From a virus, in the IMG/VR virus record IMGVR_UViG_3300043331_000441, positions 66,557-130,556 of that record: DNA of 64,000 nt, one strand, 5' to 3'. Below, piece by piece: positions 47,151-57,402 of this stretch. Positions within the stretch are counted from its first letter, which is position 1, and each line of letters starts with the position of its first letter. The notes under the pieces are model-generated. The model searched no databases, was not told the origin of the DNA, and saw only the letters and a program-made list of their open reading frames with translations. A program made the translations under genes and the position numbers.

Positions 47151-48779
47151 TTAGATCTTGCCAGCGATGAAGTCGCTAATCAAGTTCGGCGTCGCCGTAT
47201 CGAAGCCGACGACATCGAGTTGACCAGCGTCCTGCGGATCGTTGATCTGCGTTGCATATGAAACCATCGCGACCGTGACGCAGCGGGCGTTGATGCCGCT
47301 CTGCTTGCGGTACTGCACCAGCGCCTGCGCCGGGTGGTAACGATGCCCGGCCCACGTCTGATGGTCGGTGTAGAGCACGAAGCCGTCGAACTGCTTGCGC
47401 TTCTTGATCGCGTACTCCATCGGCAGCGAGCAGTCGGTGCCGCCACCCGTCGCCGGGAAGGAGTTGAGCGCGTCATCGAGCCGCTGGCTAGACGAGATGC
47501 CCGCGGCATAGACCGACGTATCGAAGCCGATCACCTCGACGTCCGGCTCGACGTTGAGCGTGATCAGGGCCATCGCGACCCCTGCCTCACGCGGCGACAG
47601 CGGGGCGCCCTGAATGCCGTAGCCCATGCCCATCATCGACCCGGACACGTCGACTGCCAGCAACAGCTTCTTGTTGGTCGGCTCAACGTTCTTGAATGCC
47701 GTGTAGAACGCAGCATCGAGTGCGTCGGTGATCTTCGGCTTCGGCGTCCAGCCCTCGCCGCGCGACTGGTAGCCGTGGCCCGACGCATACGTGCGTAGCG
47801 CGAACAGCACCGCCATCGGATGGATCCGCGACTTGCGAATGTACTCGGCGTCCGCGAGCTGATCGAGCACGATCTTGAGTAGCGCCGTGTCCTCCAGCGT
47901 GCGGTTACGAGTCATCGTCGCAAGGTTGCGGATCAACGCCGTCATCGGCATCCCCGCCTCCAGCAGGGCGCCCCAGACGTCGGTCGAATTGAGATGTTCG
48001 GTCTTGAGCGCCTCCCGCGGCAGACGGAACTCACGGATCAGTTCAGCCGTCCGAGCCGTGGACGGAGAATCCTGTGCAGCCTCGAACGCGCCGAGTAGAG
48101 CTGGCTTGTCAAGCTGATCAGAACCGGATCGATCGGACTGGGTCGGAGTAGGCTTGTCATTGCGCACGATCCACTCGAAGATCGCGGCATTGTCCTTGTG
48201 GGCCGGGTGTGCAAGCCGAAGCAAGTCACGATGGCTCCAGCCGCCGCGCGAGCGGTACTTGATCGCCTGGTAGGCAAGCTGATCTGGATTACGGTCGTAC
48301 CAGTTGGAAACGGCCCACCGCATCGTCCGGCCCCAACCGCGCATCGTCTCTGCGTACGCAACGAACGAGTACAGATGCGTGCCGATCCGCGCGACCTTCG
48401 GCAGCGCCTCAGCCGCAGCCCGCTTCGTCACGTTGTCGCCATGCGAGATCGCGTAGGCGAGCGCATATAGCGCCTGATCATTCTTCGGCGCACGCCCCTC
48501 GTCAGAGATCGTGACAATCTCGTTGACGGTCTTGACGCCGTCCTCCTTGAGGCACTCGCCGAGCGCGATGATGTTCTGCTTCGTCAGCTCACGCTCGCCG
48601 ACGTAGTACGCGCCACCCTCGGTGCCGAGCACAAGGAAGCGCCGTAGCCGCGCCCACTTGTCAGCCTGCCAGGCGTAGCCCCCGGCCTCGTTCTTGACCT
48701 GATCTGCCCGCATCGGCTCCGACTGCGGAGTCCGACGGGTGCCCCCGTGCTGCAGCAAAGCGTTCCGCTGCTTGGCCAT
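47151..48779 (-). CDS. rsr: Ro60/Rsr RNA-binding protein (TROVE + vWA domains)
   Basis: 542 aa; RLRRFL.LGT.GG.YY, Q.IKYR.R.GWSHRDLLRL.H, MP.TALIRNL..M, vWA LAVDVSGSM...TD..TW, DVVGFD. Confidence 0.95.
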   Translation of the reverse strand: MAKQRNALLQHGGTRRTPQSEPMRADQVKNEAGGYAWQADKWARLRRFLVLGTEGGAYYVGERELTKQNIIALGECLKEDGVKTVNEIVTISDEGRAPKNDQALYALAYAISHGDNVTKRAAAEALPKVARIGTHLYSFVAYAETMRGWGRTMRWAVSNWYDRNPDQLAYQAIKYRSRGGWSHRDLLRLAHPAHKDNAAIFEWIVRNDKPTPTQSDRSGSDQLDKPALLGAFEAAQDSPSTARTAELIREFRLPREALKTEHLNSTDVWGALLEAGMPMTALIRNLATMTRNRTLEDTALLKIVLDQLADAEYIRKSRIHPMAVLFALRTYASGHGYQSRGEGWTPKPKITDALDAAFYTAFKNVEPTNKKLLLAVDVSGSMMGMGYGIQGAPLSPREAGVAMALITLNVEPDVEVIGFDTSVYAAGISSSQRLDDALNSFPATGGGTDCSLPMEYAIKKRKQFDGFVLYTDHQTWAGHRYHPAQALVQYRKQSGINARCVTVAMVSYATQINDPQDAGQLDVVGFDTATPNLISDFIAGKI

Positions 48780-48813: not shown

Positions 48814-48945
48814 CCACCGGGCGTGGTGTGGGAGTCGGGTGGGAGGCTCTCGCCTTGATCCCGGGTGAGCGTTGCGGATTCGAACCGCTACAGCGCTTAC
48901 CGCCGCCTGCTGGAAGATAACCGACCGGCCCTCCGGCCCAAGTGG
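48814..48945 (-). ncRNA. Y-RNA-like unit A (terminal Ro-type stem, T-arm-containing interior)
   Basis: Minus strand 5' CCAC-TTGGGCCGGAG...GGTTATC, T-arm GCGG-TTCGAAT-CCGC, 3' CACACCACGCCC-GGTGG. Confidence 0.75.
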
Positions 48946-49004
48946 AAAAACAACTATAGCGAACTGCGGAGGAAATGCAAGTGCCTATTTGCAGGTATTT
49001 CGCG

Positions 49005-49150
49005 GCGGATGTGTGGTGAGGTCGGGTTTACACCCATCAGATTGCTCTGCTGAGCGATCTTGCGACGCCTTGTCGCCTACCCGCCATGAGAGGCGGGTAC
49101 CGGAATCGAACCAGTCAACGAGATAACCGAGTCTCTTTCGACCCAACCGC
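49005..49150 (-). ncRNA. Y-RNA-like unit B (YrlA-like circularly permuted tRNA module)
   Basis: 5' GGGTCGAAAG (fits the GNCGAAN0-1G Ro-site motif as I recall it), T-arm ACTGG-TTCGATT-CCGGT, looped acceptor ACCCGCC-TCTCAT-GGCGGGT. Confidence 0.8.
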
Positions 49151-49170
49151 GAGTGCGAGAGTCTAACAGA

Positions 49171-49297
49171 GAGGGGGCGTGTGAACGAGATCGGTTTGAG
49201 GCTGCTGCTCTTCCAACTGAGCTACACGCGAAGCGTGGCGGGACTTGAACCCGCGACCCGCAGCTTGGTAGGTAACCGAAACCCTCCGGCCCACCTC
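49171..49297 (-). ncRNA. Y-RNA-like unit C (classic YrlA T/acceptor/D module)
   Basis: GCTGC...GCGGG-TTCAAGT-CCCGC-CACGC-TTC-GCGTG-TA-GCTC-AGTTGGAA-GAGC-A-GCAGC; the anticodon stem continues into the terminal stem. Confidence 0.85.
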
Positions 49298-49313
49298 ACA
49301 AATGAGTATAGGC

Positions 49314-49429
49314 GAGGGGCGTGTTGTGAGGAACGGTCGCGTGCTTTCGCACGTTCGCAGGGTTTGAACCCGCCTTCCCAGGTCGTAACCTGGTTTGTCC
49401 CGATAACCGTCAGCCTCTCCGGCCCACTC
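49314..49429 (-). ncRNA. Y-RNA-like unit D (T-arm plus two hairpins)
   Basis: 5' GAG-TGGGCCGGAG...GGTTATC; GCGGG-TTCAAAC-CCTGC; CGTGC-GAAA-GCACG; 3' CACAACACGCCC-CTC. Confidence 0.75.
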
Positions 49430-49467
49430 ACTCACCGGTAAGGACCTACGTTACGAGCGTATCAAAT

Positions 49468-49605
49468 GAGAGGGGGGCGTGGTATGCGATGGGCCGTGGA
49501 AGGGCCGGAATCGAACCGGCGTCTTCGGCGTTCTAGGCCGATGCTCTACCTCTGAGCTACCCCAGCGATGTGCTGGATAACCCAAGCGCTCCGGCCCACC
49601 CTCTC
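49468..49605 (-). ncRNA. Y-RNA-like unit E carrying a canonical-order tRNA body (anticodon AGA) with a truncated acceptor stem
   Basis: GGGG-TA-GCTC-AGAGGTA-GAGC-A-TCGGC-CTAGAAC-GCCGA-AGAC-GCCGG-TTCGATT-CCGGC-CCTT-CCA inside the shared terminal stem. Confidence 0.8.
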
Positions 49606-49643
49606 TGTGCGCCTCTTGCCGAGGCACACATCATCTTAAGCAA

Positions 49644-49712
49644 TCCCGGGCGTGTTGTGCTTGAGGGGTCTGTTCTCCAATGAAGGTAACCCTCGAAGCT
49701 CCGGCCCAAGGA
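49644..49712 (-). ncRNA. Y-RNA-like unit F (minimal, ~65 nt, no tRNA module)
   Basis: TCC-TTGGGCCGGAGCTTCGAGGGTTACC...ACCCCTCAAGC-ACAACACGCCC-GGGA. Confidence 0.7.
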
Positions 49713-49721
49713 CAAAAATGT

Positions 49722-49854
49722 GGCGGGCGTGGTGTGAAGATCGGTGTTTTGGCGTCCTTGGCCACTAGACGACATAGCCCGAAGGCCACGGCGGGATTCG
49801 AACCCGCGTATCCCTCTTATCAGGAGATAACCGATGCTTCTCCGGCCCAACCGC
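49722..49854 (-). ncRNA. Y-RNA-like unit G (permuted tRNA with a retained GAT anticodon-like loop)
   Basis: CTC-CTGATAA-GAG loop, GCGGG-TTCGAAT-CCCGC, CGTGGCC-TTCG-GGCTATG acceptor, GTC-TAGTGGCCAAG-GAC D-arm. Confidence 0.82.
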
Positions 49855-49865
49855 ATGAGACTCTA

Positions 49866-55985: not shown

Positions 55986-56773
55986 CAGCGTGCTTCGCAG
56001 GACGTACAGAGCGGAGCAAGTTCCGATTTCGCAAACAGTGCGGTCTGGCCTGCATCGAGATCCCTTGCCTGTCTACTCGCCCAGACGCTTGCGACTATCC
56101 CGCGCTTCTCACACTCGGCCTCCAGTGCATTGATCTGACGCGCTGTATCTGGGAACCAGGCGGCAATGTCATGGATTTCTTCCGAACGTGCCAGCGCACC
56201 ACAGAGACACTCGCCCGATCGATGCAGCAGATCAACAACTCGATTGCGCTGAAGTCCCTTTCGTTCGATGAACTCGTTGCAATCAAGCTTCGTCCAGTCA
56301 AGGATCGGAGAAATCCACGTCATCCGCGTGTTTTTCGAATCGCGTCGGATCGGGACGCTGATGCCAGCGCCCATCCGACGTACAGATTCGTCTTTCCGAA
56401 TACCGGTCACAAAACCGTGCCGCCCCTCGATTCGTCGATGCCAGCGCAGCAACGGCTGCTGCTTCAAGTAGAAGAGCATCGTGTTGTGGCTCGCGCTGCC
56501 GTAGGGGAAGCCGCCGCGCGTGAGCACAAGTTCTGCGTAACGCCCCTCCGGAGCGTGAACCTCATGCAACGACCAGCGCTGGCGCTCGCAGGTGTCGCGC
56601 ACGAACTGGCGCGTTTCTTCGATACCGATCCCCGTGTTGATGTGCACAACACCGGCAAATAGCGGGTGTTGTGCTGCAAGTGCGGTCGAAACGAGTGAAT
56701 CGTGACCGCCAGAGAAAAGTGCGTAGATATGCGTAAGATCTTCTTGCGCGACAGCATCCTCAAATACACTCAT
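55985..56773 (-). CDS. PAPS-reductase-family (PP-loop) protein
   Basis: LFSGGHDS, HINTG, GIRKDES.RR, PILDW, SGECLCG, C-terminal CTSC. Confidence 0.88.
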   Translation of the reverse strand: MSVFEDAVAQEDLTHIYALFSGGHDSLVSTALAAQHPLFAGVVHINTGIGIEETRQFVRDTCERQRWSLHEVHAPEGRYAELVLTRGGFPYGSASHNTMLFYLKQQPLLRWHRRIEGRHGFVTGIRKDESVRRMGAGISVPIRRDSKNTRMTWISPILDWTKLDCNEFIERKGLQRNRVVDLLHRSGECLCGALARSEEIHDIAAWFPDTARQINALEAECEKRGIVASVWASRQARDLDAGQTALFAKSELAPLCTSCEAR

Positions 56774-57402
56774 ACGACCCGCTCTTGGTACAGCTCGGGA
56801 AATAATTCAGCCTGCACGCGCAAATGCATTTCTACCTGCGCCTTGCGGTCGCGCCACATTGTTCGATGCGCAGACTGCGGGTTGATGTGGGCGTTGTAGA
56901 TCGCCTGTGGTACGGGGAAGACACGCGCGCCTGCTTTCCAACACTTGGCCCACAGTGACCAATCTTCAAAACCGTGCGGGTAGTTGCTGAATCCTCCGAC
57001 TTGCTGAAAGAGCCTGCGCCGCAGTACCGTGCCAACAACGAGGTAGTTATCTGTACTGAGATCCTTTTCCGGGATCAAATACACCGGGCCAGGCCGTCCT
57101 TTGCGGTGATAACAGACAGATGGCTGCAATAACGCTGGTTCAGGCCGTGCATCGGAGCAGATTGCCTCCGTCATCGCACGGCAATAGTCGTAATGCAGGT
57201 CGTCATCGGCGTCGAGGAAGAGCAACCACTCTCCTGTGGCCCGTGACGCAGCACGGTTGCGAGCTGGGCCTATCTCACCACCGCGATCGTGGTGATAGAT
57301 CACTTCATAGGCGTTCTGTTCTTGCGCTGAGGGAATGGCGCGTTGCATCGCAACCTCGCGCCAGTGATCTGCGCCGTAGGTTGTAATGACAATGGAGATC
57401 AA
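56770..57402 (-). CDS. GT2 glycosyltransferase
   Basis: ARNRAA..A.GEWLLFLDADD, GGF...EDW.LW. Confidence 0.9.
   Translation of the reverse strand: MISIVITTYGADHWREVAMQRAIPSAQEQNAYEVIYHHDRGGEIGPARNRAASRATGEWLLFLDADDDLHYDYCRAMTEAICSDARPEPALLQPSVCYHRKGRPGPVYLIPEKDLSTDNYLVVGTVLRRRLFQQVGGFSNYPHGFEDWSLWAKCWKAGARVFPVPQAIYNAHINPQSAHRTMWRDRKAQVEMHLRVQAELFPELYQERVV

Follow-up and report, generated by a model that had tools for sequence, protein, structure and literature searches.

The 64,000-nucleotide stretch analysed here (the window) is the right-hand 64 kb of the IMG/VR virus record IMGVR_UViG_3300043331_000441, which comprises 130,556 bases and is estimated to be 92% complete. It carries rsr, the gene for a Ro60/Rsr orthologue, and directly upstream of it, on the same strand, an array of seven Y-RNA-like units at 48815-49851. 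All of these features lie on the minus strand, and read that way the units follow one another in the order G, F, E, D, C, B, A. The initial annotation of this DNA had placed the array at 49171-49854; the array is real, but that extent is too short, as units B and A continue to 48815. In each unit the paired 5' and 3' ends would form a handle common to the array, and a distinct cargo would lie at the other end. The rsr gene and the units, with their parts as found by sequence matching and minimum free energy (MFE) folding, are as follows.

47151-48779, minus strand: rsr, the Ro60/Rsr orthologue (542 amino acids; Pfam TROVE and vWA_Ro60)
48815-48942, minus strand: unit A, the last before the rsr ribosome-binding site; hairpin at 48890-48907 and 4-bp T arm at 48874-48888
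49003-49148, minus strand: unit B, handle with the exact GNCGAANG motif (GUCGAAAG); T arm at 49100-49114
49169-49295, minus strand: unit C, a classic YrlA (Rfam YrlA, MFE cloverleaf); T arm at 49238-49254, 5-bp closed acceptor hairpin at 49225-49237, D arm at 49207-49222, and an anticodon-stem-like helix (49260-49265 with 49200-49208) that continues into the handle
49313-49428, minus strand: unit D; handle, 6-bp hairpin at 49378-49393 (UACG loop), T-like arm at 49357-49373 and GAAA-capped hairpin at 49340-49353, with no D arm
49471-49600, minus strand: unit E, a tRNA body inside the handle in canonical order; hairpin X at 49561-49577, D arm at 49543-49557, anticodon arm at 49525-49541 (loop CUAGAAC), 4-nt V loop, T arm at 49504-49520, handle 3' strand at 49475-49494
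49644-49710, minus strand: unit F, a minimal Y RNA (handle and one short hairpin; MFE fold)
49720-49851, minus strand: unit G, a YrlA-type Y RNA (MFE and consensus fold); anticodon-like hairpin at 49813-49827, V loop GAUAC, T arm at 49791-49807, closed acceptor hairpin at 49773-49790 (7 bp, UUCG loop), Asp/Glu-type D arm at 49754-49770, handle 3' strand at 49724-49745

The rsr product matches Pfam TROVE (2.3e-41), vWA_Ro60 (9.3e-49) and PHROG 850 (RNA-binding protein; 9.5e-88), and the gene shares 67-69% nucleotide identity with the Ro genes of Bixzunavirus mycobacteriophages. Only 36 nt separate the end of unit A from the rsr start codon, which places the units beside the Ro60/Rsr gene and on its strand. 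A search with the Rsr protein returned three viral contigs at 82-86% identity (L001, L002 and L003) and one at 51% (L007), and syntenic arrays are present in L001/L002, L003 and L007; a metagenome scan for further relatives returned only a duplicate of L002.

A common handle encloses the seven units

For Chen et al. 2014 (PMC4201824), a bacterial Y RNA carries GNCGAAN0-1G close to its 5' end as well as a conserved YUAY, and is encoded on the strand of rsr at most 4 kb from that gene. In the array, the 5' strand of the handle consists of UGGGCCGGAG (UGGGUCGAAAG in unit B), a short variable helix and GGUUAYC, which in each unit includes the published YUAY, and the 3' strand consists of the complement of the variable helix followed by CACACCACGCCC, so that the handle pair is GGGCCGGAG/CACACCACGCCC. 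The window contains seven exact copies of the 10-mer UGGGCCGGAG, six of them at 48931-49849, and matches with two mismatches are as frequent as expected from shuffled sequence. Across the 130.5-kb genome a relaxed handle pattern matches seven times, always on the minus strand and within the array. Each unit shows, in its MFE fold, GGGC-GCCC pairing around an internal loop that holds the Ro motif, with the inner stretches paired too, so paired ends carrying the Ro-binding motif (bacterial GNCGAAN0-1G) are a feature of every unit; unit B matches this motif exactly. Given the handle motif, the YUAY, the linkage to rsr and the paired ends, the units are Y RNA genes by every criterion that can be tested on sequence.

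Different cargoes are built from tRNA parts

Of the nine perfect T-arm-like hairpins in the genome, five lie in the array and two are part of tRNA-His and tRNA-Asp, tRNAs that the phage itself encodes. Units C and G have the T arm, closed acceptor hairpin and D arm in this order, the D arm of G departing from the family consensus. Unit C had been annotated as a YrlA-type permutation, and its arm order, its MFE cloverleaf and an Rfam YrlA match at 49203-49262 (minus strand) agree with this; the match (41.6 bits, E 3.5e-7) covers the core only (model positions 23-85) and stays below the RF02553 gathering score of 69 bits. Unit G had been described as permuted with a 7-nt CUGAUAA loop on an extra hairpin. 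Its predicted fold bears out both the permutation and the hairpin, as does a consensus fold with the orthologues from L001, L003, L007 and phage Cali, in which 13 of 41 pairs are compensated. The hairpin, UCUC-CUGAUAA-GAGG directly after GGUUA, is the 'V' stem-loop already described for YrlA. The orthologues of unit G score 33-37 bits with Rfam YrlA, and G itself gives no Rfam YrlA match because of its unusual D arm.

Unit E has the canonical order of arms and a CUAGAAC loop with the anticodon AGA, as first annotated. Its Rfam tRNA match at 49502-49561 (minus strand; 53.5 bits) clears the RF00005 gathering score of 29 bits with the cloverleaf core only (model positions 6-65 of 71). The ARAGORN call for unit E is tRNA-Ser(aga), and the bases for tertiary contacts are present in the sequence (U8, A14, G18G19, G15/C48 and the T loop UUCGAUU). 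The handle had also been thought to replace most of the acceptor stem; on this point the relatives instead support a closed hairpin before the D arm. A consensus fold with L001 and L003 has 31 pairs, 5 of them compensated, and includes this hairpin X, located after GGUUAUC and before the D arm, with a sequence of its own in each of the three phages. Acceptor pairing in unit E amounts to at most 4 bp (GGGG/CCUU, two of them G-U) and competes with hairpin X, and the 7-bp acceptor stem with a free 3' end and usable anticodon expected of a working tRNA is lacking. The CCA at unit E is not conserved in L001. No bacterial isotype combines an AGA anticodon with a variable loop as short as the 4 nt seen here; tRNA-Ser would have a long variable arm, which unit E lacks. 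In L003, the E unit has lost the T arm and carries another anticodon arm (loop UUUUUAG). Because of the short acceptor pairing, the lack of a conserved CCA, the combination of AGA with a short variable loop and the loss of the T arm in L003, unit E is, on these features, not a decoding tRNA. A BLAST search with the E body against phage records returned only generic class-I tRNAs (Phe, Thr, Ala and Val; 75-83% identity), so that no donor isotype can be named.

The remaining units contain less of a tRNA. Unit D has orthologues in L001 and L003 with different hairpin sequences. In unit B, which is kept in L001 and L003 and for which a similar-looking unit was recognized in L007 by reading the sequence, the T arm directly follows GGUUAUC and is followed by three more hairpins (MFE z = -3.0). 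The T arm of unit A exists only in the window, and L001 and L003 have unrelated hairpins at that place. Unit F, of 60-67 nt, has neither T nor D motif and gives no Rfam match, in keeping with the initial view that it has no tRNA body; L001, L003, L007 and phage Cali each have two F-type units, the second one of L001 and L003 being absent from the window.

Handles are kept and cargoes exchanged among relatives

Among the window, L001 and L003, 64% of handle positions are identical, compared with 37% of cargo, 56% of spacer and 69% of neighbouring open reading frame (ORF) positions. A handle pattern search of the viral collection matched more than 120 stretches, and about 40 viral contigs have an Rsr homologue (35-50% identity) beside one to eight handles on the same strand. 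About 80 single handle matches without Rsr were taken as chance, some hundreds of random matches being expected by a rough estimate from the information content of the pattern and an assumed collection size. The largest arrays seen are those of L003 (eight units) and the window (seven units), and phage Cali has three units, one of the YrlA type and two minimal ones.

The cargoes are exchanged as modules even between close relatives. The D arm of unit G is of the Asp/Glu type (UCGUCUAGUGGCCAAGGACG) in the window and UAGCUCAG...GAGC in all orthologues; unit C has an orthologue in L003 and none in L001; and the triplets of the anticodon-like loops vary across relatives (GAU, ACU and GCC in G-type units, AGA and UUU in E-type units). 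ARAGORN found E-type units only in the window, in L001, in L040 (9-nt loop) and in L072 (6-nt loop, with an open 7-bp acceptor stem that continues into the handle). Because the tRNA bodies in L040 and L072 are unlike that of the window and unlike each other, separate origins of the E-type units are suggested. The initial annotation had proposed that the units were built by repeated capture of different tRNA genes. With regard to module exchange (the D arm of G and T arm of A in the window, the arms of E in L003 and the E bodies of L040 and L072) this idea holds, but units C and G are not fresh captures: both are members of YrlA, an old and widespread family in which the T and D arms hardly vary across 63 sequences from bacteria and viruses.

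An un-permuted tRNA with a Ro handle was observed in L126 (1105-1235 of the upstream stretch) and in L114. It has an open 7-bp acceptor stem, a discriminator and an encoded CCA, and the handle forms a hairpin with a GCUUGC loop between the D arm and an anticodon-like hairpin (loop AUGCAAA in L126, CUGUAAA in L114), after which the V loop and the T arm follow. Such an RNA would carry a free CCA end as well as a Ro60 handle. In L053 the same wiring was seen for the D-arm half only, and the next unit there has an AUGCAAA hairpin.

These two loci bear on the question of whether the array encodes precursors of working tRNA-like molecules, with unit G opened by RNase P and CCA-tailed, unit E trimmed, and the products charged or used in translation. 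There is a precedent in Mycobacterium smegmatis, where RNase P cleaves YrlA, with its acceptor stem of 7 bp, and a CCA tail is added in vivo (PMC4201824); the acceptor hairpin of G likewise has 7 bp, the Rfam tRNA score of E is near the 60-61 bits of the phage's own tRNAs, and L126 and L114 encode the open form with CCA. However, the features that set E and its L003 orthologue apart from a tRNA speak against such a fate, the Ro handle of more than 40 nt stays on G at the D/anticodon junction, and aminoacylation of a Y RNA was not found in the Y RNA literature surveyed. We regard this explanation as improbable.

Cargo turnover is fast, units are lost between close relatives, and many phage rsr loci adjoin real tRNA clusters, as might be seen if the array were a decaying tRNA cluster or a set of functionless tRNA pseudogenes that lie near rsr by chance. 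This is very improbable in view of the handle, which is strictly conserved, confined to the array and paired around every unit, and of the compensatory changes that keep the helices; moreover, the arrangement recurs beside Rsr in the roughly 40 viral contigs, and the YrlA-type core is found in more than 100 bacterial contigs.

In the inner handle helices, cognate and non-cognate pairing gave -8.45 and -6.74 kcal/mol, respectively, a weak difference with mixed ranks, in a comparison of 23 units that omitted units E and C of the window, was affected by one mis-set L007 unit and consisted mostly of units sharing a CGGU/ACCG core; the pairing of the handles is therefore taken from the folds. A minimal F-type unit of L007 (1658-1736, plus strand) matches the Rfam nematode stem-bulge family ceN72-3_ceN74-2 (26.3 bits, E 0.0058), the consensus of which has GUCCGGAG...GGGUUAUC...CACCAAC in common with the phage handle. 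Nematode stem-bulge RNAs are regarded as Y RNA homologues; if they are, the handle and its UUAUC motif would be very old.

The V hairpin resembles an anticodon arm

ARAGORN often mis-called YrlA-type units as tRNAs by taking the hairpin after GGUUAYC as an anticodon arm, and we therefore surveyed such units in viral and genome collections with a pattern consisting of the handle, GGUUAYC, at most 30 nt and GGGUUCRA. The survey yielded 171 distinct YrlA-type units, 46 viral and 125 bacterial, from Cyanobacteria, Actinomycetota, Alphaproteobacteria, Deinococcus, Longimicrobium and others. A hairpin anchored on YC is present in 135 of the 171 units, and its commonest loop length is 7 nt (78 units, against 9.6 +/- 3.0 in shuffles); U at loop position 2 together with a purine at position 6 is found in 66 of these (1.3 +/- 1.1 in shuffles), figures that are not probabilities because the shuffles ignore relatedness. 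The 78 seven-nucleotide loops include 33 different middle triplets and 19 different stems. Their composition is C32 86%, U33 95%, A37 77% and A38 77%, and the same positions in 447 ARAGORN tRNA calls from the same loci give 69, 94, 78 and 63%. The triplet is freer than in real tRNAs, with A34 in 15% versus 3% and U36 in 54% versus 30%. Between the V hairpin and the T arm lie 5-7 nt (typically GAGGUC), a succession that matches anticodon arm, variable loop and T arm in a natural tRNA.

The helices of this core are supported by covariation. In an alignment of 63 YrlA-type cores, 94.9% of the cells of the four helices (anticodon-like, T, acceptor and D) are paired, compared with 33-52% in slid controls, and double changes are found in 15 of 20 pairs, values reached in none of 500 shuffles. 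Variation is almost absent from the T loop and D arm, and the acceptor hairpin covaries strongly. In its loop the V hairpin reproduces the anticodon-loop frame, not particular tRNAs. Chen et al. 2014 (PMC4201824) called it the 'less-conserved stem-loop V' and the equivalent of a variable arm, and no description of the loop signature was found in the primary YrlA literature, a coverage outside which the key reviews lie. A relic of an anticodon arm would fit the model, mentioned by Wang et al. 2018 (bioRxiv 10.1101/312249), that YrlA arose from a dimeric tRNA transcript.

One use of such loops, put forward in the initial annotation, would be as decoys for anticodon nucleases or other tRNA-targeting defences, in which they soak up or inhibit host tRNA-cleaving toxins and perhaps pass the toxins or cut products to Ro60. 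In favour of this, the exposed loops of units G and E have 7 nt, with U at position 33 and a purine at 37; the 78 YrlA-type loops combine a real anticodon-loop composition with many triplets, which in G- and E-type units differ between close relatives; and bacterial rsr has been linked genetically to tRNA damage responses (PMC7790460). However, the anticodon-like stems have only 3-4 bp and are set by the GGUUAYC motif rather than copied from tRNAs, A34 is overrepresented, and the E-type loops are non-natural (AGA in the window, 9 nt in L040 and 6 nt in L072). The hairpin is also equally common in bacterial chromosomal YrlA units (55 of 125), where counter-defence makes little sense, and a stoichiometric decoy would need very high expression against a catalytic nuclease. 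This explanation is thus unlikely, and altogether the earlier suggestion of a nuclease decoy or a ribosome/T-box modulator finds little support, none of it direct.

There is a low probability of another use, namely that the V hairpins and E-type anticodon arms are true mimics read by a factor that recognizes anticodon-loop shape, and that phage arrays diversify triplet and wiring as a pseudo-tRNA panel for Ro60. Such a factor might modify tRNA, as the t6A37 machinery does, or be an anticodon nuclease or synthetase domain. The formation of t6A37 is determined by U36-A37. Loops of the NNU-A-A form (U36 A37 A38) are frequent among YrlA-type hairpins (U36-A37 in 54%), and hairpins of this kind may be substrates or mimics for the t6A37 enzyme.

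Transcription signals and neighbouring genes

Further features of the array and its surroundings are the following.

48953-49865, minus strand: TANNNT (-10-like) hexamers of the array, read from sequence and alignment; for unit G at 49860-49865, the E leader at 49633-49638 (UAAGAU), D at 49456-49461, C at 49305-49310, B at 49160-49165 and A at 48953-48958
49607-49629, minus strand: 9-bp hairpin with a GGCAA loop, situated after a -10-like hexamer and before unit E, kept in L001 and L003
49864-50069, minus strand: ORF of 67 amino acids just upstream of the array, syntenic in the window, L001 and L003

The hexamers lie 8-15 nt upstream of units G, C, B and A and of the E leader, and about 30 nt upstream of unit D; no TANNNT hexamer was found before unit F. 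A three-way alignment places them at the same sites in L001 and L003, which suggests mostly separate promoters of the actinobacterial type for the units. We infer these promoters from the hexamers, because a scan for E. coli-type promoters and terminators was blank (no promoter and one terminator-like site at chance level) and the hexamers were read by eye. The hairpin at 49607-49629 is probably the 5' leader of the E transcript and may serve as a leader or processing signal. A 25-nt stretch, CAUCCGCCGCGAAAUACCUGCAAAU, at 48987-49011 (minus strand) is identical in the window, L001 and L003 and so exceeds most units in conservation. Its first part closes the terminal stem of unit B, while its remainder precedes unit A and rsr together with their -10-like hexamer, and it may be a regulatory site.

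In six other loci (L259, L265 and L250, bacterial; L011, L013 and L074, viral), a minimal Y-like unit is followed by a real tRNA gene (Asp, Gly, Trp or Thr) that starts some 60-90 nt beyond the unit's handle motif; four of these tRNA genes encode CCA. At such loci, tRNA processing common to both genes might define the 3' end of the Y RNA.

Portal and head genes are located downstream of rsr. Upstream of the array lies the conserved 67-amino-acid ORF, followed by a UDP-glucose dehydrogenase-like gene. The ORF has a strong ribosome-binding site and a C-terminal KRRGRPPK tail that is AT-hook-like; it is the neighbouring ORF with 69% identical positions across the window, L001 and L003, and it has no Pfam or PHROG family match. 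Outside the window, Rfam tRNA matches of 105 and 153 nt (positions 56706-56810 and 56934-57086 of the whole record) cover the full model, which makes them tRNA-shaped RNAs with large inserts.

Discussion

We propose that the phage has an rsr locus with seven genes for Y RNAs, in which a common handle is combined with different tRNA-derived cargoes that act as adaptors or gates for Ro60, and we put the probability of this reading at about three in four. The anatomy of the units, their linkage to rsr, their conservation and their covariation are observed; Ro60 binding, separate transcription and the adaptor role are what we infer. The cargoes are parts or full copies of a closed tRNA cloverleaf into which the handle is inserted at different points. 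In unit C, the handle extends the anticodon stem, an arrangement also present in the Salmonella crystal structure. In unit G, the V hairpin, read as an anticodon arm, completes a closed cloverleaf, to which the handle adds a fifth helix at the D/anticodon junction; in unit E the cycle is opened elsewhere (hairpin X, D, anticodon and T arm), and the fifth helix formed by the handle is at the T/acceptor junction. A T arm is retained in units D, B and A, and no tRNA part in unit F. None of the seven units is a decoding tRNA.

In bacteria, a Y RNA tethers Ro60 to PNPase, and YrlA is modified by TruB and DusA (PMC4201824). The Ro60 of Thermus phage phiLo, with two Y-like RNAs encoded upstream, binds host PNPase and damps it (PMC12135203). 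By inference from this bacterial and Thermus-phage work, each RNA of the array would dock on the phage Ro60 ring through its handle, and the cargo would recruit a host RNA-handling protein (PNPase, or readers of the tRNA elbow or anticodon loop) or gate access to the ring, so that the array would form a panel of adaptors for one Ro60 protein during infection.

Several points weigh against this proposal. The adaptor step is an analogy. In six units the Ro motif is GCCGGAG, which departs from the published consensus at one base, although the orthologues of these units in L001, L003 and L007 often have the exact motif GCCGAAG. The YrlA score of unit C is sub-threshold (41.6 versus 69 bits), and unit G lacks a YrlA match. 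The phage is uncultured and its RNAs are known here from sequence alone, whereas for phiLo binding and host PNPase complexes have been shown. Finally, a version of the proposal in which the particle is an RNA repair platform has no partner encoded by the phage, since searches of the phage found no RtcB, CCA-adding enzyme or RNA ligase (Rnl2-type); a reading of the locus as an RNA-repair operon was dropped for this reason.

The array resembles the known YrlA loci (RF02553; PMC4201824; 10.1101/312249) in its position upstream of rsr on the same strand, its GNCGAA-type motif and its YUAY, and units C and G further share with YrlA the T arm 5' of the D arm, the closed acceptor hairpin between them and the optional 'V' stem-loop before the T arm. 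Phage Cali is a Bixzunavirus, as is ET08 of Chen et al. (PMC4201824). In contrast to described YrlA loci, which have one to four units, there are seven here and eight in L003; the array scores below the Rfam threshold, and the D arm of G is of the Asp/Glu type. The V hairpin, which shows the anticodon-loop frame in our analysis, is the equivalent of a variable arm in the published YrlA papers. Yrn1 of Deinococcus radiodurans is comparable to unit E in that its T/D order is opposite to that of YrlA with an 'anticodon arm' between (PMC4201824), but Yrn1 has partial D features and a 6-nt loop, whereas unit E has a near-complete tRNA body with all tertiary-contact bases and an extra closed hairpin. 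PhiLo likewise encodes a phage Ro60 with Y-like RNAs directly upstream (PMC12135203); its Yrl1 and Yrl2 are two stem-bulge-stem RNAs for which no tRNA mimicry was reported, in contrast to the seven units with tRNA-derived cargo described here. Circularly permuted tRNA genes known from red algae and from one archaeon (cited in 10.1101/312249) also have a closed acceptor loop and ends paired beyond the anticodon stem, but they are spliced into decoding tRNAs, and nothing suggests such processing here.

The Ro60/Y RNA pair, the YrlA plan and the V stem-loop were therefore known, and what is new is the size and variety of the array and the family-wide anticodon-loop signature. This would add little if the field already sees the V arm as the anticodon relic of the proposed dimeric-tRNA ancestor. 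If the V hairpins were true mimics, the Ro60/Y-RNA particle would be a player in the phage-host conflict over tRNA. In these phages one Ro60 handle is kept while the closed tRNA cloverleaf around it is quickly rewired, and a single phage can hold seven or eight Y RNAs, a natural panel of variants for testing. Since 2014 it has been asked what binds the tRNA-like domain of bacterial Y RNAs, and the fixed handle with its rewired cargoes, the number of RNAs per phage and the anticodon-loop frame of the V hairpin narrow the candidates to readers of the tRNA elbow and of anticodon-loop shape.

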